This document shows, in pieces, positions 33,101 through 61,918 of a DNA stretch of 62,126 nucleotides; the stretch's first letter is position 1, and every line of letters starts with the position of its first letter. Made by a program: the position numbers and the translations under genes. Origin of the DNA: Thermoplasmata archaeon (GTDB lineage: Archaea > Thermoplasmatota > Thermoplasmata > Lutacidiplasmatales > UBA184); contig JASHSX010000087.1 in the NCBI GenBank assembly GCA_030040865.1, positions 1-62,126 of the forward strand, read 5' to 3'. The notes under the pieces were generated by a model. That model was not told the DNA's origin, ran no database searches, and saw nothing but the letters and a program-made list of their open reading frames with translations.

Positions 33101-36100
33101 AATCTCGCCGAGACGTTCACGATCCCGGCGGCGACGGTCTCGGGGAACGTCTACTGGAAGCTCGGCGACAACACGTCGTACGAGAGCGGGGAGCCGCTCA
33201 TCTCGGGGGCCCAGGTCGTGCTGTGGGGCGCGGGTCTGGGCACCCGCACCGCCACGACCGATCCCAGCGGGACGTTCGCGCTCGCCAACGTCCCGTCGGG
33301 CGTCTACAACGCGAGCGTGCTGTACGCGGGGCACAACTTCACGATGACCGCGATCACGGTGACGCCTTCCTCGAGCACCACGCCCCAATCGTTCGGCCTG
33401 CCGGCGTCGAAGGTCGTCGGTCGTGTGATGCAGGGCGAGCAGGGGGTCGCGAACGTGACGGTGACGGCCTCCGCTCCCGGCTTCACGATCTCCAACCTGA
33501 GCGCGTCGAACGGAAACATCACCCTGCCGACGCTGGGACCCGGTAACTACTCGATCGTCGCCAGCCTGCCCGGGACCGGCCTGCGGTCGGCCGGTGCGTT
33601 CGTCCAGATCACGTCCCCCGGCACGACGGTCCACCTCAACTTCACCCTCGCCGCGACCGCGGCCGCCTCGGTCACGCTCGTGGCGAACGGAGCTCCGGTC
33701 TCGGGCATCCCCGTGCGGTTCGTCGCCCTCCCCGACCTCACGAGCAGCAATATGTCCCCGATCGCGGCGTACTCGAGCGTCGCCACGAACGGCACGGTCG
33801 TCACGAGCAGTTCTACCGGCCTCGCGAGCGTCGTCCTGCCGGTCGGGACGTACGAGGCGTACGCGCTCGGCTACGTGGCGGGCACGCTCGACGCGGGCAT
33901 CGGCACCGTGACCACCACGGCTTCGGTCGTCCCCCCGCCCGTGCCGATCGTCCTCACGCCGGCGTACCGTTTATCCGGATCGGTGAACCTGGTCGGAGCA
34001 GTCGGCAGCGAGAGCCAGAGCGCGGTGGTCGCGTACACGAGCGCCGGGGACCCCGTGATCTCCTGGGCCGGGACGAACAGCACGTACGTCCTCTACCTTC
34101 CGTCGGGCACGTACTCCCTCTACGCGGTCCAGGGTACGACCGCCGCGACCGGGCCGTTCTACGCGGCGCTCAGCTCCGTCACGCTCACCGGGCCCGCCTC
34201 GGTCTCCCTCTCGCCGTCGGTCGCGGTCTACGCGCGCTTCTCGACGGGCTCCCACCTCGCCAACGGGTCTCTGTTCCCAGCCCCGACCTCCCGGGCCGTC
34301 ATCTCGTACGGCGCGACCGGCCCCTCGATTCCGCTGGTCGGTTCGGCGAGCGGTGTCCTGGCCGGTTACCTCCCGTCCGCCCTCCCGCTCAGTGTGCCGT
34401 CGTACTGCCTCGCCGTCTCGGCCCCGGGGTTCGCCTCGTCGAACGAGTGCGGGATCTCCCCGAGCGGGCTCGCCGCACTCTCGACGGTGCCGCTCACCCT
34501 GACCCCCGTCTCCGTGACGGTCCGGCTCGTCGGACTCCCCCGCGGCATGTCGGCCGCCGTCAACCTGACGGCGCAGAGCGCGACCGCGGTCACCCGCACG
34601 CTCACCGGCGGCCCGAACGTCGTCTTCTCGACGACCCCGGGAAGCTACGCCGTCAGCGGGTGGACGAGCACCGACAACGGTACCGTCCTCTACGAGCCCT
34701 CCAACCCGGTCTCCGCGACGTTCCCGCTCGGCACGGTCAGCGCGGCCGTCACGCTCCGGGTCGTCGCCACGATCAACGCGACCGGGACCCTCGCGTTGCC
34801 GAAGGACGGAGCGCTCAACGCCACGCTCGTGTCGCTCTCCTCGCCGCAGCTCAACAAGACCGTCAACGGCACGGTGTTCGAGGACGGATTCTTCGCCGCG
34901 GTCGGTAGCTACTCGGTCTACTCGAACGTCACCGTCAACTCGGTGCTCTACACCAACGTGACGACGGCGAGCGTCTCCGCGAACGGCACGATCTCCCCGA
35001 AGATCACGATCGACACCGTCGGCCTACGGGTGAGCGGGACGCTCGAGCGACCGAGCGGCGCCCTCCTGAACGCCAACGCCACGCTCACGATCACCACGCC
35101 CGGCGGGGCCGTCCTTCGGACCTACGCGGCCAACGGAACGTTCACGGTCTACCTGCCGCCGAACGCGACGTACCGGGTGAGCACGTCGACCGCGACCAAC
35201 GTCGTGGGACCGAACGGGACGTACGTGGCGACCTGGACCACCCCGACGAACAGCGCCTGCACGGTCTCTCCGAATTCGCCGAGTTGCCCGGTCCCGCTCG
35301 AACCGACGACGGTGCGCGTCTGGCTGAACGGCACGCTCGTCGCCCCCGGCGTCCCGGGGCTCGTCCCCGGAGCGGTCCGCCTCATCGGTCCGTACCCCTA
35401 CACGAACCTCACGATCGTGAACACCACCTCGGGGGCGTTCTCGGCGCAGGTCCTCCCGGGGAGCTACTCGGTCTACGCGTCGGGGGGCGGGGTCTCCGAT
35501 CTCCTGGCGAACTTCACCGAACTCCTGGCGCTGCCGACCACGAACGGGTCCTCGACGATCTCGCTTCTACCGGCCTGGGTGGCGACGCTCGGGGTCGCTC
35601 CGGCGAACGTGTCGCTCGCGCCGCCGGGACCGGCGAACGTGACGGTCCGCAACGCGTTCGGCCTCACTACGGTCCTTCCGGGGGTTCGCGGCTCCGCGTC
35701 CCAATCGATCGCCCTTCCCGTCGGGACGTACGTCGTCAGCGGCGCCTCGAGCGGGTACCCGTACGGCCTCAAGACCGCGGCGAACGGCGCCCTGAACCTC
35801 ACGATCGTTTCGGGGAACGTCGGCGCCACCGTGCCGCTCGCCTACGCGTTCGTGCCGTCGGTCACCGGCACGCTCACCGGTCGGGGCTCCGTCCTCGTGA
35901 ACGCCGGTACGCAGGTCAGCTTCTCGTTCACCGTGAAGAACACGGGGAACGTACCGGTGACGATCCATCCGACCGGCGGCCCGTCGTACTGGCCGTTCAA
36001 CTTCACGCTTCAGAACGTGACGGTCCCGGTCGGTGTCCAGCTGGGCGGCGTGGCGATGATCACGGTGCCGGCGGGCACGATCGTCGACCACCCGGGAGTC

Positions 36101-36715
36101 ACCATCTCCTTCGCGCTCCCGAACGGCACGATCGTCGGCTCCGTCGCGCCGGACCCGAAGGTGAATATCATCGGATTCTTCGGCGTGAAGGTGAGCTCCA
36201 CCTCGTCGGTCCCCGCCGAGATCGGGCCGAACCAGGCGCGGATCCCGTTCAACATCAGCAACACCGGCAACCAGGGCGAGACGGTCGCGATCACCGCCGT
36301 CGATGAGCCGCGGATCAACGCGCTCGGGTGGACGGTCACCTTCGTTCAAGAAGGGCTCGAGACCCCGATGACGACGACCTTCCTGTCGGCGGGTCAGAAC
36401 CAGACGTGGTACGAACAGCTCAACGCGACCGGCGCGATCTTCGTTCCGGCGGGGACCGTCACGGTGGCCGGGACCGTCCTCAACTCTACGACCTCCCCGC
36501 AGTCGTTCGTCACGATCCGCGTTCCCTCCGCGTCGGTCGGCCCCGCCTCGAACGGGACGGGTTCGTTCACGGTGACGGGACCGCAGGTCGGCCCGGCCCC
36601 GTCGAACCTCCCCGATTGGCTCGTGCCGGCGCTCGTCTTCGTGCCGGCGCTCGCCCTCGTGGTCCTGATCCTCGTCTACCGGTGGAACCGCTCGCGGCGG
36701 TGGAGGCGCCGGTGA
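30122..36715 (+). CDS. aglB: giant AglB dolichyl-phosphooligosaccharide-protein glycotransferase (STT3 homologue) fused to a ~1300-aa tandem beta-sandwich surface domain with C-terminal TM anchor
   Basis: 2197 aa, a single uninterrupted ORF. N-terminal multi-TM region with GGSDSYYHSR (first-loop acidic motif), LIYSTVAEAQ (TIxE-type motif) and VSWWDYGFQ (WWDYG catalytic motif, nt 31868-31882). From about aa 900 there are repeated G.V..PDG.P..GA.V...G...T.DGSF.L.LPPG-type (CarboxypepD_reg-like) and CARDB-like (FSFTVKNTGNVPVTI) modules. The protein ends with LVPALVFVPALALVVLILVYRWNRSRRWRRR. Confidence 0.9.
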   Translation: MESSRTGWWHRHGWTVAILLAAFGIAFAIRTVWTYPIVAQYGPLYTYAGGSDSYYHSRVMSYIILNHTNLVKDPLLRFPVGAINPREPLFDWMNALLGLVFAPFFGGNAVVAGAWFLDLQAPLWAALSVFPIYWIGKEVSNRRMGLIAALIYPFLSASIDSSIFGYANYLSFYTFIILVALYSYLRTVRAVGSRKWIASYRHPRQYWPGLRAFLRTERTAVKWAVFTGVCLGATALAWQGYTYVVVVIVLALVISVVAERIRKVDSFGMYVCAWIVGAVGFPMELPYYLVQYHSDIYGFESFFLLQFLIYFGALLLLLPFVMLRDVPWVFSIPLMVGVMGAGIAGLAIVNPSLFTTIVTGQGYFVKTLIYSTVAEAQAPTVDELVIGYGVVTFFLAFAGVGIFLYLLVKGRFKRVHVVFLVFAILSIYLPVSATKFFLLGSPAFALLPAEAIRRALDVGSYPELRRTVASLSDRRSQFAAFRKAFKARHVLVMLLVLVILLPNVWVSIDAGIPGNTKSGYAAQVGATLPPWLQLNTTSPSSYYFGAAGSSLDTPNQYDSAGYNWLATLDTNIPEPDRPAFVSWWDYGFQAIDQGQHPSVADNFQNGIDPAGQFLLAQNESIAIGVLATTLLTGIPAQSATTYLPANLNQILAADGLNTSRLNGYLLNQGSDYTTVVNNPTLYLPVDASTLTAENAMYMVVSYYIAGKLPLSGVAKVYNDVQAYTGNSIRYAMSDTRLFPFSGTDTGIYYAPADLTGRVIDGAGNPSTYFNVTVLGSDGNTYPEGQVPADVSAVNYNINYFAPFYDSMIYHIYIGYNGTDVGAGSGIPCISLNCTSYPLEPGWMLQHFQVIYETAYLCPSQTDTAACSATNRPTAISQAAATGAYADLSADNYFNGGESFLQYYPGQTLLGEVVLPDGTPVAGARVTVDDGWGIPHMTAVTAKDGSFSLVLPPGNDTVNVTIGTVNGLSQQGATLLKSVKIDVPNAIGLSYDAPNLAETFTIPAATVSGNVYWKLGDNTSYESGEPLISGAQVVLWGAGLGTRTATTDPSGTFALANVPSGVYNASVLYAGHNFTMTAITVTPSSSTTPQSFGLPASKVVGRVMQGEQGVANVTVTASAPGFTISNLSASNGNITLPTLGPGNYSIVASLPGTGLRSAGAFVQITSPGTTVHLNFTLAATAAASVTLVANGAPVSGIPVRFVALPDLTSSNMSPIAAYSSVATNGTVVTSSSTGLASVVLPVGTYEAYALGYVAGTLDAGIGTVTTTASVVPPPVPIVLTPAYRLSGSVNLVGAVGSESQSAVVAYTSAGDPVISWAGTNSTYVLYLPSGTYSLYAVQGTTAATGPFYAALSSVTLTGPASVSLSPSVAVYARFSTGSHLANGSLFPAPTSRAVISYGATGPSIPLVGSASGVLAGYLPSALPLSVPSYCLAVSAPGFASSNECGISPSGLAALSTVPLTLTPVSVTVRLVGLPRGMSAAVNLTAQSATAVTRTLTGGPNVVFSTTPGSYAVSGWTSTDNGTVLYEPSNPVSATFPLGTVSAAVTLRVVATINATGTLALPKDGALNATLVSLSSPQLNKTVNGTVFEDGFFAAVGSYSVYSNVTVNSVLYTNVTTASVSANGTISPKITIDTVGLRVSGTLERPSGALLNANATLTITTPGGAVLRTYAANGTFTVYLPPNATYRVSTSTATNVVGPNGTYVATWTTPTNSACTVSPNSPSCPVPLEPTTVRVWLNGTLVAPGVPGLVPGAVRLIGPYPYTNLTIVNTTSGAFSAQVLPGSYSVYASGGGVSDLLANFTELLALPTTNGSSTISLLPAWVATLGVAPANVSLAPPGPANVTVRNAFGLTTVLPGVRGSASQSIALPVGTYVVSGASSGYPYGLKTAANGALNLTIVSGNVGATVPLAYAFVPSVTGTLTGRGSVLVNAGTQVSFSFTVKNTGNVPVTIHPTGGPSYWPFNFTLQNVTVPVGVQLGGVAMITVPAGTIVDHPGVTISFALPNGTIVGSVAPDPKVNIIGFFGVKVSSTSSVPAEIGPNQARIPFNISNTGNQGETVAITAVDEPRINALGWTVTFVQEGLETPMTTTFLSAGQNQTWYEQLNATGAIFVPAGTVTVAGTVLNSTTSPQSFVTIRVPSASVGPASNGTGSFTVTGPQVGPAPSNLPDWLVPALVFVPALALVVLILVYRWNRSRRWRRR
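32822..36540 (+). repeat. protein-level tandem array of roughly a dozen ~85-100-aa beta-sandwich modules inside aglB
   Basis: Recurrent degenerate pattern (e.g. GEVVLPDGTPVAGARVTV...DGSFSLVLPPGN; SGNVYW...SGAQVVLWG...DPSGTFALANVPSGVYNASV; VGRVMQGEQGVANVTVTA...NGNITLPTLGPGNYSIV; RVSGTLERPSG...ANGTFTVYLPPNATYRV). Module boundaries were estimated by eye only. Confidence 0.5.
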
Positions 36716-37548
36716 GCGCGGTCCGTCGACTTCCGGTCCTGCTCGCGATCGTCGTCCTCCTCGGGGCGGCGTTCGCGATGGGGCCGAGGGTGGCGGCCGC
36801 CGCGCCACCCGCCTCTCTCACGGCGGCCGCGTCGTCGTCCGTCACCGGGTCGGTGTACGGCCCGACGGTGCTCGGAGTGAACGGCCACGGCGCCTACACG
36901 ATCAACGCGACGGGCGGACCCGCGTACGCCCCGAACGGCACCGAGGTCGGCAACATCACGTTCTACGCTTCGCTGCAGGCGAGCAACACGACCGGGATGA
37001 ACATCACCCCGGCGGAGTTCGTGATCACGAACGGCACGTTCACCCCGGCTCGGCTGTCCACGAACGGCTTCGCCCAGGTCGTCACGATCCTGGTGATGAT
37101 CTCGTCGACCAACGCGACGGCCAACGACACGATCAACGTCACCTACGCGGTGAACGTCGTCACACCGTACTCGCTGACCGCCACGATCGTGAACCAGACG
37201 AACGCGACGGTCCTCGCGTTCGTCGTGTACGTGGCGCTCGACGGGACGATGGTCGGCAACGTGTCGGTCCCGTCGATCACGCCGAGCGCGAACTACGCCT
37301 TCTCCTTCCAGTACGTGACCCTGAGCCTCGGCACCGGATGGCATACGTTCACGGTCTCGCTCGCGAACGAGCACGGGCTGGTCGCCTTCTCGAACGGCGC
37401 CCTCAGCTACTCCGTGTCGTTCTACGTCCCGGGCCCCGCCCCCAACTACACGCTCTGGTACGTCGTCGGCGTCGTCGCGTTTTTCGGGGTACTGTTTATA
37501 TACGCCACCCGAGTGGCCGCTCGCCGACGCGGCGCCCTGCGCAAGTAG
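36712..37548 (+). CDS. secreted sequon-dense protein with signal peptide and C-terminal TM anchor (putative surface glycoprotein)
   Basis: 278 aa from GTG 36712 (GTGA overlap with the aglB stop). Signal-like VSAVRRLPVLLAIVVLLGAAFAMGPRVAAA. 13 N-X-S/T sequons by manual count. C-terminal LWYVVGVVAFFGVLFIYATRVAARRRGALRK. The upstream 128 aa of track ORF 36328 lies inside aglB. Confidence 0.7.
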   Translation: MSAVRRLPVLLAIVVLLGAAFAMGPRVAAAAPPASLTAAASSSVTGSVYGPTVLGVNGHGAYTINATGGPAYAPNGTEVGNITFYASLQASNTTGMNITPAEFVITNGTFTPARLSTNGFAQVVTILVMISSTNATANDTINVTYAVNVVTPYSLTATIVNQTNATVLAFVVYVALDGTMVGNVSVPSITPSANYAFSFQYVTLSLGTGWHTFTVSLANEHGLVAFSNGALSYSVSFYVPGPAPNYTLWYVVGVVAFFGVLFIYATRVAARRRGALRK

Positions 37549-37569
37549 GCGCGCGGAGGCGAGTTACCG

Positions 37570-37743
37570 ATGGAGTCCCGGGTCGACGTGCGGTGCCGTT
37601 CCTGCGGCCGGGCGCTCCCCGCGCCCGGCGGGACCCAGTTCCTCTGTCCGCAGTGCGGGACCGAGACGATCGGCCGGTGCACGCGGTGCCGGGACCAGAG
37701 CGTGACGTACCGCTGCTCGAAGTGCGGGTTCGTGGGACCGTAG
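37570..37743 (+). CDS. small double Zn-ribbon protein (COG2888/DUF1610, translation-associated)
   Basis: Not in the ORF track (57 aa). Own translation: MESRVDVRCRSCGRALPAPGGTQFLCPQCGTETIGRCTRCRDQSVTYRCSKCGFVGP. Four CxxC pairs, and the conserved archaeal position immediately upstream of EF-1beta. Confidence 0.75.
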   Translation: MESRVDVRCRSCGRALPAPGGTQFLCPQCGTETIGRCTRCRDQSVTYRCSKCGFVGP

Positions 37744-37759
37744 GAGCCGGGGTCGGCGC

Positions 37760-38026
37760 ATGGGTCAGGTGGCTGTCCTCTTCCGTCTGATGCCCCAGGG
37801 CGTCGAGACCGACATGCAGGCGCTCGGCGCCGGGGTGCGGTCGGTAGTGCCGAAGGGGGTCACGATCCGCGGCATGCAGGTGAAGGACATCGCCTTCGGG
37901 CTCAAGTCCCTGCTCGTGTCGGTCGTCATGGACGACACCGGCGGGGTCCTCGATTCGGTCGAGCAGGCGCTCGCGAAGGTGCCCCACGTCGAGTCGGTGG
38001 AAGTGATGGAGGAGGGGCTCCTCTAG
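37760..38026 (+). CDS. ef1b: translation elongation factor aEF-1 beta
   Basis: 88 aa; MGQVAVLFRLMP...IAFGLKSLLVSVVMDD..GG.LDSVE..L..V..VESVEV is typical of aEF-1beta. Confidence 0.9.
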   Translation: MGQVAVLFRLMPQGVETDMQALGAGVRSVVPKGVTIRGMQVKDIAFGLKSLLVSVVMDDTGGVLDSVEQALAKVPHVESVEVMEEGLL

Positions 38027-38041
38027 GCGCGCGGGGAGACC

Positions 38042-39025
38042 GTGGACCTCTTCTCGCACGTCCTCGTCGCCTACCTCGTCACCTACGGCATTGTCGGCTT
38101 CCAGCCGTCGTACCTCGCGGCCGGAGCGCTCGCGGGAGGGCTCCCCGACGCCGACGCCCTGTTCTTCCCGCTCGCCCGCCGCTTTCCGCTGCTGCAGCAT
38201 CACGGGATCACGCACTCGCTCACGGGCGTCACGGTCGTGGCCGTGGCCGGGGCGTTCCTGGCCCCGCTGCTCGCGCCCGGCTCCGCCCTCGTCTACTTCC
38301 TCGTGATGGAGGTCGGCGGGATCTGCCACATCCTACAGGACGGGTTCACCCACTTCTCGGTCCCGCCGCTCGCGCCGTTCTCCGACCGCCGGCTCGAGCT
38401 CGACGCCGACCGGGCGATCAACTTCGTCACGATGGCGTTCTCGATCGCCGCGTTCTACCTGCTCCTCGTGGTCGAGCGCAACCACGTGCCGTTCGCGACG
38501 TACGTGCTCACGGTCTACCTCCTGATGGCGTTCTTCGCGGCGTACTTCGGCATCCGACTGGCGGGCCGGTTCGCGATCGGCCGGCACCGCACGGCCGTCG
38601 GGCCCAAGGCCGTCCCCGTCCCCACGGGGAACCCGTTCAAGTGGGTCCTCCTCTCGGAGGAGCTCGCGGACGGCCGGGTCCGGACGACGTGGGCGCGCTA
38701 CGTGCTGGGGAAGGGCCTGGTCGACGGGCCGTACTCCGTCGAGGCCCCGGTCGAACCCCCGGCGCACACCGGGGCCCCGACCACCGCGCAGGAGGCGCTC
38801 GACTGGTCGTACGGGCCGGCCCGCAAGGCGAGCCGCGTGCTGCTCATGACCTACCACTTCGGCGAGGCGTTCCGGACCGCCGCCGGCGCTTGGGTCGCCG
38901 TATGGTATTCCCTCGAGTTCACTGCCTTCGGGCGGGCCTCCGGGGTCCGGGTGAGCTTCCCGGCCGACGGCGGGGTCCCCGAGGTGCACACGACGTTCTA
39001 CCGTCCGATCCACCGGGTCGTCTAG
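38042..39025 (+). CDS. membrane-bound metal-dependent hydrolase (YdjM/DUF457 family) with C-terminal extension
   Basis: 327 aa, GTG start. MDLFSHVLVAYLV, HHGITHSL, HILQDGFTH motifs, several TM helices. Confidence 0.8.
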   Translation: MDLFSHVLVAYLVTYGIVGFQPSYLAAGALAGGLPDADALFFPLARRFPLLQHHGITHSLTGVTVVAVAGAFLAPLLAPGSALVYFLVMEVGGICHILQDGFTHFSVPPLAPFSDRRLELDADRAINFVTMAFSIAAFYLLLVVERNHVPFATYVLTVYLLMAFFAAYFGIRLAGRFAIGRHRTAVGPKAVPVPTGNPFKWVLLSEELADGRVRTTWARYVLGKGLVDGPYSVEAPVEPPAHTGAPTTAQEALDWSYGPARKASRVLLMTYHFGEAFRTAAGAWVAVWYSLEFTAFGRASGVRVSFPADGGVPEVHTTFYRPIHRVV

Positions 39026-43911: not shown

Positions 43912-44994
43912 ATGTCGTGGCGTGTCCCCCTCGAGGCCCGTAGCGAACGCGTCTTCCCGAGCCGGATGCGGGGCTCGACGGTGACCCACCGGTTTTCGAG
44001 TCGCGTCCTTGAGGGGAACCCCTGGGGCGACCCGGTCGAGCGGGACCTCCCGGTCTATCTGCCCCCGTCCGGCACGACCGAAGGGAAGCCGCTCCTCGTG
44101 CTCCTCTCCGGGTACACCGGGGCGGGGTACTACCACTTCCAGCGCCCTCGTTACCTTCAGGACACGCACATCGGGCGCCTTGATCGGTTGATCCGGACCG
44201 GCATCGCGGCGGAGGCGGTCGCCGTCGCTCCCGACTGCCTCACGACCCTGGGCGGTAGCCAGTACCTCAACTCCAGCGCCACCGGTCGGTACGAGGACTA
44301 CGTCGTGGAGGAGATCGTCCCGTGGATCCGGGAGAAGTATCGGACCGGCCCGTGCGCCGTGCTCGGCACGTCCAGCGGAGGATACGGCGCCATGGTCCTG
44401 GCGCTCCGGCACCCCGATCTCTTTCGGGCGGCCGCATCGAACGCGGGGGACTGCGGCTTCGAGTACTGCTACCTCCCCGAGTTCCCGCCCGTCTTCCGTA
44501 CCGTCCGCAAAGCCGGCGGACCCGAGGCGCTCCTCCGGAGGGTCCTCTCGGAGCCCGTCAGTGACTACGGGCCCCACCAACCCGAGGTCCAGGCGCTTGA
44601 GACGATGGCCTACGCGTCGTGCTACTCGCCCCGGGTCGAAGAGCCCGGGCGATTCGATCTTCCGTTCGACCTCGAGAGCGGCCGGCTGCGGGAGGATGTC
44701 TGGGCCCGCTGGCTCGCCTGGGACCCGCTTCGGATGATCGCGACCGACCGGTATCGAGACGCGTTGCGTCGTCTCGCCTACCTCTACGTGGACGGCGGGA
44801 CCCGCGACGAGTGGTTCCTCGACGTCGGGGCACGGATGTTCGCGGCCGAGGCCCTCCGTCAGGGGGCTAAGGTCGAGGGACAGGAGTTCGACGGCGTACA
44901 CGGCGACAGCGGGCCCCGGTACGAGGTGATGATCCCCCGGCTGCTCGCCGCGCTCGGGTCCCCGGCCCCGAACGCGGGCCACCGAGCGGTTTAG
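43912..44994 (+). CDS. putative esterase (esterase D / enterochelin-esterase-like alpha/beta hydrolase)
   Basis: 360 aa; LPVYLPP, PLLVLLSGY, nucleophile elbow AVLGTSSGGYGA, DGGTRDE. ATG 43966 is an alternative start. Confidence 0.85.
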   Translation: MSWRVPLEARSERVFPSRMRGSTVTHRFSSRVLEGNPWGDPVERDLPVYLPPSGTTEGKPLLVLLSGYTGAGYYHFQRPRYLQDTHIGRLDRLIRTGIAAEAVAVAPDCLTTLGGSQYLNSSATGRYEDYVVEEIVPWIREKYRTGPCAVLGTSSGGYGAMVLALRHPDLFRAAASNAGDCGFEYCYLPEFPPVFRTVRKAGGPEALLRRVLSEPVSDYGPHQPEVQALETMAYASCYSPRVEEPGRFDLPFDLESGRLREDVWARWLAWDPLRMIATDRYRDALRRLAYLYVDGGTRDEWFLDVGARMFAAEALRQGAKVEGQEFDGVHGDSGPRYEVMIPRLLAALGSPAPNAGHRAV

Positions 44995-45197: not shown

Positions 45198-45746
45198 CTA
45201 CGGGCCGACGTTCCGGTCCTCGAACGGGACCAGTGCCTCGTCCTCGAACCAGGCGAGGGTGATGAACGTCCAGGTGAGCGCGAGCAGCAGCACGAGCTCC
45301 GGCCGTTTCGCCGCGGCCGGCGCGACGATCACCGCCCCGCCCGCGAGCGTCCGACCCTCGCGCACCGGTTCGATGTGGAGGCACTCGGCGTTCGCCGCGT
45401 CGACGACCTTCCACGCCGGGAGGAGAAGACCCGCCCTGCGGAATCGGTACGAAGCTCCCCCCTCGACGTCGATCGCGTGGTGGCTCAAGTGGACCGAAAG
45501 GCGACCGAGGGAGGCCGGGGGGTCCGCCGACCGTGCGAGGAGGTGCGGATTGAGGAAGCCGGCGCGCGTGATCGTCCAGGAGCCGCCCGCGGACTCGGCC
45601 GTCGCGGTCGAGCCTCCGTCCCGCGGCCACCGCAGGAGCAGCACCGGGGCCTCCCCGGCCGAGAGGCGGAACTCGGTGGGGGAATCGCCCGTCTTCCACC
45701 AGCGCAGCGAGCTCACGTCGAGCGACGCGAGCGGAGGGAACTCCAT
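45198..45746 (-). CDS. hypothetical protein with C-terminal hydrophobic helix
   Basis: 182 aa. Beta-rich N-terminal part, then a C-terminal helix, PELVLLLALTWTFITLAWF. Strong G/C third-position bias. No family recognised. Confidence 0.6.
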   Translation of the reverse strand: MEFPPLASLDVSSLRWWKTGDSPTEFRLSAGEAPVLLLRWPRDGGSTATAESAGGSWTITRAGFLNPHLLARSADPPASLGRLSVHLSHHAIDVEGGASYRFRRAGLLLPAWKVVDAANAECLHIEPVREGRTLAGGAVIVAPAAAKRPELVLLLALTWTFITLAWFEDEALVPFEDRNVGP

Positions 45747-45796
45747 CGACGGCGCACCGGACCGAGCCCTCTTAACGGCGCGGTGGACGGGCGGAC

Positions 45797-46441
45797 CTAC
45801 GGTGACGCGACCCGCCCGCCGGCGCGGCGAGGACTGGTGTCGCGTTGGATCTCGTCGAGCTCCGCGAGCGCGCTCTCGATGGCGGCCCGACTCTGGGCCG
45901 TCGACGCGGGCGACGGGGGCGGGGTGACCGGCTCGGGCGGACGGACGGAGGGGCGCGGCGTAGCGGTCGCCGGAGCCTCCCGGATCGACGGTCGCGCGGA
46001 GGGACGGGGTGCCAAGATCACCGGGGCGATGGGGGCCAGCGGACGAGCGAGCGGTCGGGGCGCCGGGAGCGGGAGCTCATCCTCCGACCAATCGGCGGGA
46101 GAGGCCGGTCGGGAGGCGAACGGGGCCATCGCGACGGCGAGCCCGCCGCTCGGGGTGGGTACGGGCGCCGGGGTCGCTTCGGGCCGGGGGCGGCCGAAAT
46201 CCGCCCGGGGCGCCGAGGGTGGCCTCCGCGCATCGACCGAAGGGTCCGCCCGGTCCTCGGGCGACCGACCGTCCGAGACCACGAACGAGACGATCGCACC
46301 GGCCGCCGCGACGAACCCCAGGATCACGAGAAGGACCCAGAGCGGGAAGATCGGCGGGCCCGCGGTCGGCGCGTCGCTCCAGGTCACGTAGCCGCCGACC
46401 AACAGGGCGACGGCGGACAGGACGAGCGGAAAGCTGTGCAC
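45797..46441 (-). CDS. hypothetical membrane protein with long Pro-rich tail
   Basis: Start placed at GVG-free in-frame GTG 46441 (VHSFPLVLSAVALLVGGYVTW...) so that it does not overlap the upstream gene. Two TM helices, about 110 aa of P/A/R-rich sequence, then a C-terminal helix, AAIESALAELDEIQ. Start is uncertain. Confidence 0.5.
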   Translation of the reverse strand: MHSFPLVLSAVALLVGGYVTWSDAPTAGPPIFPLWVLLVILGFVAAAGAIVSFVVSDGRSPEDRADPSVDARRPPSAPRADFGRPRPEATPAPVPTPSGGLAVAMAPFASRPASPADWSEDELPLPAPRPLARPLAPIAPVILAPRPSARPSIREAPATATPRPSVRPPEPVTPPPSPASTAQSRAAIESALAELDEIQRDTSPRRAGGRVASP

Positions 46442-46577
46442 GAGCGCGTCCCCCCCTCGTTCACGGACGGACGAAGGGGAGCCGGCCGCTTCCTCACGGT
46501 CCACGGATGCTCCCGAAATCGGACGTACAAGGTTTCTCGTGGGATTTTTGACTATCGGAGGCTCCGAGGGGGCCGCC

Positions 46578-46946
46578 TCAGCGACCGGCCACGAGGAAGA
46601 AGACACCGGCCAGCAGGGCGAAGAGGGCCGCCAGGATGCCGAGCAGACCGGCCCCGAGCCCGAGGACCAGCCAGCCGACAACGGCCAGGACGAGGAGCGC
46701 CACGCCCGAGACCAGGGACCGGTCCTCCCCGCGCGAGCGGCCGTAGAGCGCCAGGAATCCGACCACCAGTCCGAGCACGATGAACAGGATCGACTGGCCG
46801 AGTTCCGCGCGAACGAGCCGGAAGCCGTAGCCGAGCGCGAGGAACAGGAAGCCGCGGACGATCGAGACGATCCCGTCGAGCACGAGGAGCACGGCGGAGA
46901 TCACCCCGAAGACCATCCCGATCCGTCGATTCCCCTCCGTCGTCAC
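46578..46946 (-). CDS. small four-TM membrane protein
   Basis: 122 aa, GTG start. Four Gly/Leu/Val-rich helices. Confidence 0.7.
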   Translation of the reverse strand: MTTEGNRRIGMVFGVISAVLLVLDGIVSIVRGFLFLALGYGFRLVRAELGQSILFIVLGLVVGFLALYGRSRGEDRSLVSGVALLVLAVVGWLVLGLGAGLLGILAALFALLAGVFFLVAGR

Positions 46947-47029
46947 CCGATGACCCCCGGCGTGCCGTGTTCCCGTGCCGACCGTTCGGGATTAGGCTTG
47001 CGCGGCGCGCCGCCGGCGGGTACGCCTAA

Positions 47030-47755
47030 GTGGCGCGGCGCTTCGGGGCCGGGATGGCGCGGGCGACCGTCGGGACGTCCCTACGACGGGAATTCGACCG
47101 GGAGGCCCGGGGGTACGACCGGACGGCGACGGCCTCGATGCCCGGGTACATGGACCTCCACCGGACGTTGATCGGCGGGATCCCGTACCTGCCGACCCGC
47201 CGCTTCCGGATCCTCGAACTCGGGGTCGGCACCGGCACGCTGACCGCGCAGGTCCTCCATCGGTTCCCCCAGGCGGAGCTCCGGGGGATCGACATCTCCC
47301 CCCGGATGATCGCGGCCGCCCGCCGCAAGCTCGTGGCGTACCGCGATCGCGTCGAGCTGATCGCGGGCGACTTGGAGGAGTTCGACGAGCGTCCGTACGA
47401 CGTCGTGCTCTCGGCCCTCGCGATCCACCACCTCCCGGACGCCGCGAAGTGGCGGTTGTTCCGGCGTATCCGACGGAACCTTCCCCGGGGAGGGTACTTC
47501 GGAGACGCCGATGACCACCTCCCCGAGGATCCGATCTTCGACCACCGCTACACCGAGATCGCAGTGGCCCTGCGACCCCGGGGAGTCCGCCCGGGTCGGT
47601 GGTCCAGCCCCCAGCAGGTCTGGCACGACCACGAGCGGTTCGATCATCCGACGACGGTCGCTGCGGAGACGGATGCGCTCGACCGCGCCGGCTTCGACCA
47701 CGTCGGGGTCCCGTGGCGGTTCTTCGGGCAGGCCGTGATCTGGGCCTACCGGTGA
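47030..47755 (+). CDS. class I SAM-dependent methyltransferase
   Basis: ILELGVGTGTLT (motif I), GIDISPRMI, VVLSALAIHHL. GTG 47030 or ATG 47054 could be the start. Confidence 0.85.
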   Translation: MARRFGAGMARATVGTSLRREFDREARGYDRTATASMPGYMDLHRTLIGGIPYLPTRRFRILELGVGTGTLTAQVLHRFPQAELRGIDISPRMIAAARRKLVAYRDRVELIAGDLEEFDERPYDVVLSALAIHHLPDAAKWRLFRRIRRNLPRGGYFGDADDHLPEDPIFDHRYTEIAVALRPRGVRPGRWSSPQQVWHDHERFDHPTTVAAETDALDRAGFDHVGVPWRFFGQAVIWAYR

Positions 47756-47798: not shown

Positions 47799-48053
47799 AT
47801 GCTCCGGGAGACGCAGTTCCTGGTGGGAGGGGCGGTCGTCCTCGGCGCCGGGCTCGCCTTCGCGGGACTCCTCGTCTGGAGCGCGGCCGGGGTCGCGTAC
47901 TTCGGCAGCTGGATCGGCGCGTTGCTGGCGATCGGGTTCGGTGCGTTCTTCGTGCACGTCGGCCGCGACGAGGGACGGGCGCGCCGCCGGTTCCTCGCCG
48001 AGGAGGGGACCGATCCGGGCCGTGCCCCGGAGTCGGGGCGGGAGTCCCGCTGA
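47799..48053 (+). CDS. small two-TM membrane protein
   Basis: 84 aa. Two hydrophobic helices followed by a charged tail. G/C third-position bias. Confidence 0.55.
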   Translation: MLRETQFLVGGAVVLGAGLAFAGLLVWSAAGVAYFGSWIGALLAIGFGAFFVHVGRDEGRARRRFLAEEGTDPGRAPESGRESR

Positions 48054-48100
48054 TCGTCCCGGGCAAACCTTTTGGTAGGAAGGCACGCTCCCTCCGTCGT

Positions 48101-48207
48101 GGCCGGGATGGGGTAGCTTGGCCTATCCTGGGGGACTGTGGATCCCTCGACCCGGGTTCAAAGGGGGACGGGGACGTGCCCCGACCCTGAGACTCTCGGT
48201 CCCGGCC
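48101..48207 (+). tRNA. tRNA-His(GUG): tRNA-His (anticodon GUG) with encoded G-1 and a 31-nt intron in the T-loop (position 59/60)
   Basis: Manual fold:
- G-1 (48101) pairs with C73 (48207).
- Acceptor GCCGGGA / TCCCGGC.
- U8; D-arm GGGU-AGCUUGGCCUA-UCCU.
- Anticodon stem GGGGA/UCCCU with loop CUGUGGA (GUG at 48138-48140).
- T-stem CCGGG (48152-56) / CUCGG (48195-99).
- T-loop is interrupted.
- No encoded CCA. Confidence 0.88.
48163..48193 (+). other. archaeal BHB (bulge-helix-bulge) tRNA intron, non-canonical position 59/60
   Basis: - Outer helix h1 is the T-stem.
- 3-nt bulge ACU (48192-94).
- 4-bp central helix: U57-A60 (48157-60) pairs with U88-G91 (48188-91), i.e. U.G, U-A, C-G, A-U.
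- 3-nt bulge AAG (48161-63).
- Inner helix GGG/CCC (48164-66 / 48185-87) and a terminal hairpin, CGGGG-ACGUG-CCCCG.
- Removing the intron restores the consensus 7-nt T-loop UUCAAAU. Confidence 0.8.
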
Positions 48208-48969
48208 CTACCGTTTCCGGCGCGAGCCCGTTGAGGTCGGGCGCCGCCGGGACGTCGGCGGCCGGGTGAGCCGCGCGAGGACCGCCGGGAGCTCCCCCAG
48301 CCCATAGTCGGCCCATGCGGCCCCCCACTGCTCGAGGTCGGAGGGGGTCAGCGTCCACCCGCGGACGCGAGAGGCCCGCGCGATCGCCCGCACTCCCTCG
48401 ACCGCGAGCGTCGCCTCCATGTCGAATCGAGAGTCGCCGACCAGGAAGATCGGCACGCCGGGATACCGTCGACGGTATTCGTGCAGGTGTTCCCGCTTCG
48501 TTCCCTGGGCGGAACCGAGCACCTCGTCAAACCAGTACCGGAGCCCCTCCCGCTCGAGGAGGATCTCCGCCATCTCCGTCTCGGCCCCGGTGGAGACCGC
48601 GAGGGTCCACCGTTCCTGGCCGAGCCGCTTCAGGAGCTTCGGGATCTCGGGGAACGGGTGCGCCCGGGCGTACGCCTCCGTCACCTTCCGCTGGTGGAAG
48701 GTCCGGGCGGTCGCGGCCCGCAGCGGGGCGGGGGCCGTCGGGTACAGCTGCGCGAGCTGGGCCTCGAACGGCATGCCGGTCGTCGCGAAGTAGTGGACCC
48801 GTCCCTCCTCCTCCGGCGTCCCGAAGGCCTCGTGTAGAACACTCGCCGCGACGTCGCCGATGAGCTCGAGGTCGTCGAGCAGGGTGCCGTCCAGGTCGAA
48901 GACGACGACTCCGCGCTCCACGTCGCGGGGGGGGACGTCGGTCCGCGGAAGGCCCGCGACGTGGGCCAT
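48208..48969 (-). CDS. HAD-superfamily hydrolase (phosphoglycolate phosphatase-like)
   Basis: VVVFDLDGTLLDD (motif I), VSTG (motif II), LVGDSRFDMEA (motif IV). Start is at ATG 48969; in-frame ATG 49068 is an alternative. The stop codon directly abuts the tRNA-His 3' end. Confidence 0.8.
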   Translation of the reverse strand: MAHVAGLPRTDVPPRDVERGVVVFDLDGTLLDDLELIGDVAASVLHEAFGTPEEEGRVHYFATTGMPFEAQLAQLYPTAPAPLRAATARTFHQRKVTEAYARAHPFPEIPKLLKRLGQERWTLAVSTGAETEMAEILLEREGLRYWFDEVLGSAQGTKREHLHEYRRRYPGVPIFLVGDSRFDMEATLAVEGVRAIARASRVRGWTLTPSDLEQWGAAWADYGLGELPAVLARLTRPPTSRRRPTSTGSRRKR

Positions 48970-60658: not shown

Positions 60659-60691
60659 CCACTCTTCCGAGTCGCGCGCCGGGGAGCCGCA

Positions 60692-61918
60692 GTGGGGGCG
60701 GTGCGCCGCGCGGTCCTGAACACCGTCCGCAAGCCTGCCCGCACCGCCACGGTCGTCGTCGTTATCGGGTTCGCGATCGCCATCTTCCTCACCATGTCGC
60801 TGGTGAGCAGCTCGATCGCGGGGCAGGGGAACTTCCTCTCGGGCAACGCCGCGAATCTCATCGAGATCGTGCCGGCCGGCTCCGGCGCGGGCGCCTTCTT
60901 CGGCGGAGGACCGGGGAACTCGATGAGCACCAGCGTGCTCTCGGAGATCCAGGGGACGTCGCAGGCGGCCGCGATCCAGCCGGTGGTGCAGTTCGTGAAC
61001 GGGACGTTCGGCGGGGGCGGGTCGCCGTCGACGTTCCCGACGATCGTCTACGGGGAGTACGCCAACCTGCCCCTGGTCGTGGGCACGACCATCAATCCGA
61101 CCATCACCGCCGGCCGAGCGCTCAACGGCAACGACGCGTCGGCGATGGTCGCCGAGGTCGGGAGCACCTTCGCGACCGATCACTCGGTGTCGGTCGGCAG
61201 CACGCTCGGGCTGAACGGCACGACCGTCACGGTCGTGGGGATCTTCTCCACGGGCGCACCGTTCCTGTCCTCCAGCGTGGTCGTCCCGTTCCAGGCCGGC
61301 CAGACGATCGCAGCGACGAGCGACATGCACGAAGTGTTCGTGACGGCCGCCGCGGCCGGGGACGTGAACTCCGTCGCCGCGGCGCTCCAGGCGAAGGTCG
61401 GGGACTCCTACGAGGTCGAGCCGCTCTCGTCGATCGCGAGCCAGATCCAGAGCTCGCTCGACAGCATCTACGACAGCAGCCAGACGGGGCTGTACCTCTC
61501 GCTGCTCACGGGCGCGGTCGTGATGGTGTTCGTGATGGTCCTCGCGATGCGCGAGCGGACGAAAGAGATCGGGGTGATGAAGGCGATCGGGTTCCGCAAC
61601 CGGAGCATCATCACCCAGTTCGCGGTCGAGTCGATGGTCGTCGCCGTCGTGGGGTTCGGGGTCGGGGTCGGCCTCGCCGACCTGCTCGCGCCCACGATCA
61701 GCGATCTCGTCCTCGGTCAGGGCGGCGCGTTCGGGGGCGGACCCGGGGGCGGCGGCGGACGCTTCGGCCTGTTCGGCCGGGGCTTCCCTTTCAATCCCTC
61801 GCCGGAACTGATCGTCGGGACGCTCGCGGTCGCGGTGGGACTGGGAGTCCTGGGCGCCCTGTACCCGATCGTTCGGGCGATCCGGCTCCGACCGGCGGAG
61901 GCGCTGCGGTATGAGTGA
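60692..61918 (+). CDS. ABC transporter permease, FtsX/MacB-like
   Basis: 408 aa. N-terminal TM helix, a large extracytoplasmic domain, then the C-terminal FtsX domain ([13 protein letters not shown]...[10 protein letters not shown]...[19 protein letters not shown]). Confidence 0.85.

Follow-up and report, generated by a model that had tools for sequence, protein, structure and literature searches.

A tRNA-His(GUG) gene with a bulge-helix-bulge intron between T-loop positions 59 and 60, and a family-wide set of such introns, in Thermoplasmata with a predicted alpha'2 splicing endonuclease

The window analysed here is a 62,126-nucleotide stretch of DNA from a Thermoplasmata archaeon (GenBank assembly GCA_030040865.1, contig JASHSX010000087.1). 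At 48101-48207 on its forward strand lies a tRNA-His(GUG) gene with an encoded G-1, identified by reading the sequence and by the ARAGORN call obtained after in-silico splicing (Table 1). The anticodon is GUG, the encoded G-1 pairs with C73, and the remainder folds into a cloverleaf; the G-1:C73 pair is invariant across 21 species. Of the first 20 distinct 3' trailers listed, most begin with CTAC directly after C73 (48208-48211 in the window). The HAD-like gene downstream is syntenic in 109 of the 119 loci listed, with 73-74% identity in UBA184 and AcS1-36. Together with base composition, this synteny suggests a soil lineage of Thermoplasmata related closely to UBA184/Lutacidiplasmatales.

The host is represented by a draft genome of 1.75 Mb in 205 contigs, with 70% GC and an estimated completeness of 79.65%. 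No archaeal SSU rRNA was found in this draft. Several tRNA loci or flanks occur as near-identical duplicates on small contigs: C45/C60 (Gln-UUG), C101/C202 (Ser-UGA), C110/C205 (Ala-UGC), and C20 687-870 with C113 470-653. This suggests strain-level redundancy in the bin despite a low contamination estimate.

Table 1. Features of the interrupted tRNA-His gene in the window, followed by the further 59/60 introns of the draft genome (positions on the contig named)
Feature	Position	Strand	Basis or remark
BRE-like AAA (48065-48067) and TATA-like TTTT (48070-48073) of the archaeal promoter	48065-48073	+	28-36 nt upstream of G-1
Complete tRNA-His(GUG) gene, intron included, no CCA encoded	48101-48207	+	Sequence; ARAGORN post-splicing; full-length conservation in genus
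5' exon: G-1, acceptor 5' strand, D-arm, anticodon arm, variable loop, T-stem 5' strand, T-loop nt 54-59	48101-48162	+	
G-1	48101	+	Sequence
Acceptor stem, GCCGGGA with TCCCGGC	48102-48108 with 48200-48206	+	Sequence
Anticodon GTG	48138-48140	+	Anticodon arm GGGGA-CTGTGGA-TCCCT, then 4-nt variable loop
T-stem, CCGGG with CTCGG	48152-48156 with 48195-48199	+	Sequence
Central helix, TTCA (T54 T55 C56 A57) with TGAG	48157-48160 with 48188-48191	+	U.G, U-A, C-G, A-U
5' bulge AAG	48161-48163	+	Sequence; predicted cut 48162/48163
Intron, 31 nt, between T-loop positions 59 and 60	48163-48193	+	Removal yields tRNA-His
Intron hairpin	48164-48187	+	Inner helix and apical stem
Inner helix GGG/CCC	48164-48166 with 48185-48187	+	
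Apical hairpin CGGGG-ACGTG-CCCCG	48169-48183	+	Stem 48169-48173 with 48179-48183, loop ACGTG
3' bulge ACT	48192-48194	+	Sequence; predicted cut 48193/48194; 48194 (T) then serves as nt 60
3' exon: nt 60, T-stem 3' strand, acceptor 3' strand, discriminator C73	48194-48207	+	Invariant in 21 species; colinear with uninterrupted orthologues
C73	48207	+	Sequence
Further 59/60 intron, C27	6197-6229		
Further 59/60 intron, C67	2451-2481		
Further 59/60 intron, C71	15821-15852		
Further 59/60 intron, C89	490-515		
Further 59/60 intron, C101	162-190		
Further 59/60 intron, C109	4742-4770		
Further 59/60 intron, C124	7531-7562		
Further 59/60 intron, C125	14488-14520		
Further 59/60 intron, C132	3012-3049		Lys-UUU
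Further 59/60 intron, C153	3938-3971		
Further 59/60 introns (two), C161	7555-7588 and 7380-7414		Including Leu-UAG

As it stands in the genome, the gene goes unrecognised. ARAGORN called no tRNA anywhere in the unspliced window, and Rfam returned no tRNA at gathering thresholds, nor at E<=10 on 47900-48400. RAGATH-31 and other weak Rfam matches at the locus (E<=10) were set aside as chance matches to a GC-rich hairpin. Run on the whole genome in its intron mode (-i), ARAGORN produced dozens of false genes with 'introns' of 100-2800 nt, which were discarded; its calls in the window at 35922-38344, 44429-44686, 45652-47708 and 60683-61890 (introns of 165-2331 nt) are artefacts of this mode in GC-rich DNA. 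Once 48163-48193 is deleted exactly, plain ARAGORN calls tRNA-His(gtg) with a regular cloverleaf and the T-loop TTCAAAT. The intron was also recovered, with identical boundaries, by a blind genome-wide scan for bulge-helix-bulge (BHB) motifs, in which each strict 3-4-3 motif in the whole draft was spliced in silico and then passed to ARAGORN.

An earlier note, made from the sequence alone, had described this gene as tRNA-His(GUG) with an encoded G-1 and a 31-nt BHB intron at 59/60, excision of which would restore the T-loop UUCAAAU. The identity and all coordinates given there agree with the sequence and with the ARAGORN call after splicing; the position, length and BHB geometry are borne out by the sequence and by the blind scan, and the spliced T-loop reads as predicted. 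The note was also right that tRNA finders could miss the gene, as ARAGORN and Rfam both do. Its suggestion that this may be the only tRNA-His gene is in line with our searches, as neither ARAGORN nor the blind BHB scan found a second tRNA-His gene in the 79.65%-complete draft. The same holds for five relatives that are 96-100% complete, each of which has one tRNA-His locus, where the match to the spliced query ends at 62-64.

Although the position of the intron in this gene is non-canonical, the motif itself is canonical. Two 3-nt bulges lie on opposite strands with four standard pairs between them, one of which is U.G, in the strict hBHBh' (3-4-3) arrangement. The flanking helices, for which the criterion is at least 2 bp, are both present: the outer one is the 5-bp T-stem, and the inner one is GGG/CCC, continuing into a 5-bp apical stem. 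With both bulges and both flanking helices in place, assignment of the window gene to a relaxed class (HBh', hBH or BHL) could be ruled out. In geometry the motif matches that of canonical introns at 37/38, except that it is built on the T-arm and not on the anticodon arm: the stem has 5 bp, the loop has 7 nt, and the intron follows the sixth of these nucleotides. The ViennaRNA z-score of the whole precursor is only -1.1. In the minimum free energy (MFE) fold the T-stem and the intron hairpin are kept and the 4-bp central helix is open, and for the minihelix the BHB conformer costs 2.6 kcal/mol relative to the MFE. We take the motif to be within energetic reach, though thermodynamics does not predict it.

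The interrupted gene is widely conserved. In a BLAST search of the 107 nt against 40 relatives, it was found at full length in 20 of the 24 genomes of the same genus, at 87-94% identity, and matches in other families stopped at query position ~62, which is the 5' splice site. Every genus member among the sequences compared has a T-loop insert of 31-32 nt. A pattern scan of the named genome collection extended the interrupted gene to at least 119 species-level Thermoplasmata genomes. Nearly all of these records are Thermoplasmata archaeon metagenome-assembled genomes (MAGs), and most seem to stem from soil surveys; UBA184, UBA61 and the AcS/SubAcS acid-soil MAGs are among them. The matches listed comprise 112 distinct orthologues with introns of 28-33 nt (32 nt in 81 cases), no two of them identical. 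All 112 have AAN as the 5' bulge, and 98 have ACT or AGT as the 3' bulge. Four perfect pairs make up the central helix in 67 of them; in another 44 (39%), a group to which the window gene does not belong, three pairs are accompanied by a mismatch at A57.

Exons and intron differ in how they vary. In an alignment of 21 genes from the genus, variation in the exons is confined to two D-loop columns, whereas the intron varies. Five pairs of the intron stem have changed on both sides (23 cells), an extent of covariation reached in none of 500 shuffles and by no slid register. In the central helix, the partners opposite both U alternate between G and A across the 21 species, and C56:G is invariant. 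Among the matches listed, stem pairs in the 81 ungapped introns are 72-95% paired, compared to 40-88% when shuffled. The exons thus appear to be under purifying selection and the intron under selection for structure only. The apex of the hairpin, four G-C pairs (GGGG/CCCC; 48169-48183 in the window), is nearly invariant in the 81 species, and the rest of the intron varies freely.

The region upstream of the gene is conserved as well. Among the matches listed, the 120 distinct sequences upstream of orthologous genes have 91% A/T at -36/-35, with A predominating, and 85-100% A/T at -31 to -28, there mostly T, against a background of ~20%. They share AAA at -36 to -34 and TTTT at -31 to -28 in surroundings that are otherwise GC-rich. 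We take this to be a typical archaeal BRE/TATA arrangement.

Comparison with other families shows what the uninterrupted gene looks like. The joined exons align over positions 1-76, across the junction, with eight uninterrupted tRNA-His genes of neighbouring families, with 59-69 of 76 positions identical. These eight score 48-58 bits on Rfam RF00005 and have the T-loop TTCAAAT or TTCAA(T/C)T; more distant members of the class likewise have a tRNA-His without intron and with one of these T-loops. Within the same order, one low-GC genome of another family (G028, L027) carries a 19-nt insert at the same 59/60 site. The sister family f2, also of this order (L028, L030-L032), and G036 (L035) have instead a canonical 37/38 intron in tRNA-His. 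Given that the intron state of this one gene differs among families (59/60 long, 59/60 of 19 nt, 37/38, or none), repeated gain, loss or relocation is implied.

In our view it is very probable that 48101-48207 is a single functional tRNA-His(GUG) gene with a conserved BRE/TATA promoter, a precursor of 107 nt or somewhat more, and a 31-nt intron between positions 59 and 60. In this precursor, the 5-bp T-stem would stack on a 4-bp helix formed by T-loop nucleotides 54-57 and the 3' end of the intron. The genome's single splicing endonuclease, an EndA of predicted alpha'2 type, would cut after the second nucleotide of each bulge, that is at 48162/48163 and 48193/48194. RtcB would then ligate the exons with restoration of the T-loop UUCAAAU, and the 31-nt intron would probably be released and circularised.

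Alternatively, the insert could be retained, and the tRNA could work with an extra hairpin arm projecting from the T-loop. The nearly invariant GGGG/CCCC apex in 81 species could hint at a function of the arm itself. Counter to this, a retained arm would disrupt the elbow between T-loop and D-loop, on which every elongator tRNA depends, and the interior of the insert is free to vary. Moreover, two 3-nt bulges held 4 bp apart in 112 of the 112 orthologues listed and in 12 other tRNAs are the signature of EndA recognition. We therefore regard retention as very unlikely. An equally improbable case is that the intron is removed, but in another register (for example 58/59 or 60/61) or by relaxed recognition and not through the strict 3-4-3 motif. 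It draws on the failure of thermodynamic folding alone to fix the central helix, on the 39% of orthologues listed that have only three standard central pairs, and on the 19-nt T-loop intron of L027 in another family, which has junction repeats and an ambiguous register. However, a shift of one base would alter the T-loop of the window gene, for example to TTCAACT, whereas uninterrupted orthologues read TTCAAAT, the outcome of splicing at 59/60; the BHB rule that cuts fall after the second bulge nucleotide predicts 59/60 independently. We give almost no credence to a pseudogene disrupted by insertion, with a working tRNA-His gene in the unassembled 20% of a genome that is only 79.65% complete, as more than 100 species share invariant exons and a conserved promoter, and the five relatives that are 96-100% complete have the interrupted locus alone, with the same break point.

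The tRNA-His intron, read as one that is spliced at 59/60, appears to be one instance of a lineage-wide habit. A dedicated T-arm search, followed by a covariance model (R1) built on its hits, identified 13 tRNA genes in this genome with an intron exactly at 59/60: His, Ala-GGC, Arg-UCU, Arg-UCG, Gly-UCC, Glu-CUC, Asn, Gln-CUG, Lys-UUU, Leu-UAG, Ser-CGA, Ser-GGA and Ser-GCU. Their introns range from 26 to 38 nt, and each of the 13 motifs has both 3-nt bulges; six of the central helices have four perfect pairs and seven have three pairs plus A57xG. At the fourth central pair, G57 is matched by C (5 genes), and A57 faces U (His, Ala) or forms an AxG mismatch (7 genes). The 13 introns score 37-53 bits with R1, and everything else in the genome scores 22.6 bits or less. 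For several of these genes the plain ARAGORN calls are mis-folds.

The pattern extends to the family. R1 gave 6-12 matches per genome in 24 of 24 genomes of the genus. Across seven genera of the family and 111 genomes with a completeness of 85% or more, all but one genome (110 of 111) had 1-12 matches. Outside the family R1 had no matches, a result to be read with the model's training on GC-rich introns in mind: it misses the 19-nt intron of G028 and is blind to short AT-rich introns. Copying of introns from gene to gene was considered and not upheld, in that similarity among the 13 intron interiors does not exceed that of shuffled sequences (maximum 0.44 vs 0.44), a comparison that has low power for short GC-rich hairpins.

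Two further observations concern sequence and position. In the orthologues listed and the 13 introns of this genome, the partner of A57 is very often G, not U, and the partner of G57 is always C. The preference for AxG next to the 5' bulge looks non-random, and may reflect a non-standard pair that is tolerated or even preferred. Inserts also occur in the D-arm, in an initiator-like tRNA-Met (C22 10841-10943, minus strand), in Arg-GCG (C150 5391-5414), and in the 5' parts of Lys-UUU (C132) and Leu-UAG (C161). A hand folding of the insert in tRNA-Met shows a helix of 4 bp, a pair of 3-nt bulges and an inner helix of 6 bp, with no directly stacked outer helix. This would make the motif a relaxed one, in a tRNA that is essential and in an organism with alpha'2.

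The enzyme that would process these introns is encoded by the sole PF01974 locus in the genome (contig C74). This is an EndA of 354 aa with two tandem repeats of N-domain plus catalytic domain, to which PF02778 and PF01974 each match twice. Residues 77-336 align to the Archaeoglobus fulgidus alpha'2 enzyme (1R0V/2GJW), and the conserved Tyr/His/Lys are kept in the C-terminal repeat. The catalytic repeat is colinear with the loop-less Methanocaldococcus jannaschii 1A79 (query 7-174 against 4-171 of 171), without a sizeable insertion, and the Pfam N-domain match at 186-249 covers profile positions 2-64 of 67. From these alignments we infer an EndA of the alpha'2 (homodimeric) type that is without a specificity loop of the CSL or ASL kind. 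Two adjacent EndA domains in one frame, and no others, were found in 39 of 40 high-quality family genomes. The ligase RtcB was not found in this ~80%-complete draft; we attribute this to an assembly gap, because all 25 of the near-complete family genomes examined have RtcB.

These results bear on two further points of the earlier note. The type of splicing endonuclease, which it had proposed to check, turns out to be plain alpha'2, a type that fits the strict motif and is not the one that the literature ties to non-canonical positions. The note had also placed introns outside 37/38 mainly in Thermoproteales-type crenarchaea and held them to be much rarer elsewhere. This view needs qualification in its second part, as the host belongs to Thermoplasmata, where 59/60 introns are family-wide and not rare.

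The kind of intron is already known, from 59/60 in ARMAN-2; what is unusual is the lineage and the load. An alpha'2 enzyme would be expected to accept a strict motif at 59/60. Looking across the family, we lean somewhat towards a broader reading, in which the whole soil Thermoplasmata family (Lutacidiplasmatales-like) would carry 59/60 introns in about a quarter of its tRNA genes, together with some D-arm introns, and would process all of them, those with A57 mismatches included, with nothing but an ordinary loop-less alpha'2 enzyme. If this is true, the rule that the spread of introns to non-canonical positions needs (alpha-beta)2 or epsilon2 is wrong as stated. In addition, alpha'2 would tolerate more than the strict motif, as the A57 mismatch is found in ~40% of tRNA-His introns and in 7 of the 13 introns here. 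The case is a test of the model in which tRNA introns and splicing endonucleases co-evolve: introns at non-canonical positions would have spread in a lineage with only a 'strict' alpha'2, and the two-bulge geometry would accordingly have been kept.

There are also consequences for annotation. In this lineage the only tRNA-His gene escapes ARAGORN and Rfam, and a dozen other tRNA genes are either overlooked or folded wrongly by them. Automated annotation and tRNA-based completeness checks would consequently under-count tRNAs unless an intron-aware archaeal mode is used, and the under-counting affects abundant soil archaea. The order TMEG/GTDB UBA184/Lutacidiplasmatales has been described with ~69% GC and genomes of ~2.1 Mb (Sheridan et al. 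2022). In that study tRNAs were annotated with tRNAscan-SE -A, and introns are not mentioned (Sheridan et al. 2022). A search of the literature on Thermoplasmatota, Lutacidiplasmatales and Methanomassiliicoccales found no paper describing 59/60 tRNA introns in these groups.

How the present case relates to known systems depends on the position of the intron, on the motif and on the enzyme. Alpha4 and alpha2 EndA need the strict 3-4-3 hBHBh' motif, and lineages with many introns at non-canonical positions are those with (alpha-beta)2 or epsilon2 EndA (Fujishima 2011, PMC3239211). Only (alpha-beta)2 and epsilon2 cut 'non-canonical', that is relaxed, introns, and the remaining Euryarchaeota (Cluster II) have exclusively alpha'2 (Kaneta et al. 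2018, PMC5829648). The host lineage, as part of Thermoplasmata, belongs to this Cluster II.

The closest precedent by position is ARMAN-2, where tRNA-Pro carries strict introns at both 53/54 and 59/60, and tRNA-Cys one of hBH type at 59/60 (Fujishima 2011, PMC3239211). The T-loop position is the same, and the tRNA-Pro gene shares the strict two-bulge motif on the T-arm. In contrast to the plain alpha'2 enzyme predicted here and the two bulges present in all 13 introns, ARMAN-2 has a three-unit epsilon2 EndA with a specificity loop, and relaxed motifs in addition. By intron load, the comparison is with lineages that have the Crenarchaea-specific loop, where multiple BHB-type introns outside 37/38 likewise occur per genome. 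Such introns, several per genome and sometimes two per gene, were reportedly described by Marck & Grosjean in 2003 and Sugahara in 2008. Unlike the Thermoplasmata considered here, the lineages with this loop have heterotetrameric EndA, and many of their motifs are relaxed (HBh'/hBH).

Among Euryarchaeota, Methanopyrus kandleri pre-tRNA-Glu(UUC) has an HBh' intron in the D-loop together with a 37/38 intron (Kaneta et al. 2018, PMC5829648). As here, a euryarchaeal tRNA gene is interrupted away from 37/38, and the EndA has no specificity loop. However, the M. kandleri EndA is (alpha-beta)2 and the relaxed intron is poorly cut in vitro, whereas here the motif of the tRNA-His gene is strict and the intron load is far higher. 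By motif and enzyme, a counterpart is found in the canonical 37/38 introns of Euryarchaeota that are cut by alpha'2, as in A. fulgidus (1R0V/2GJW). Motif geometry, predicted cut rule and enzyme architecture are the same; the difference lies in the supporting arm, which is the anticodon arm there and the T-arm here.
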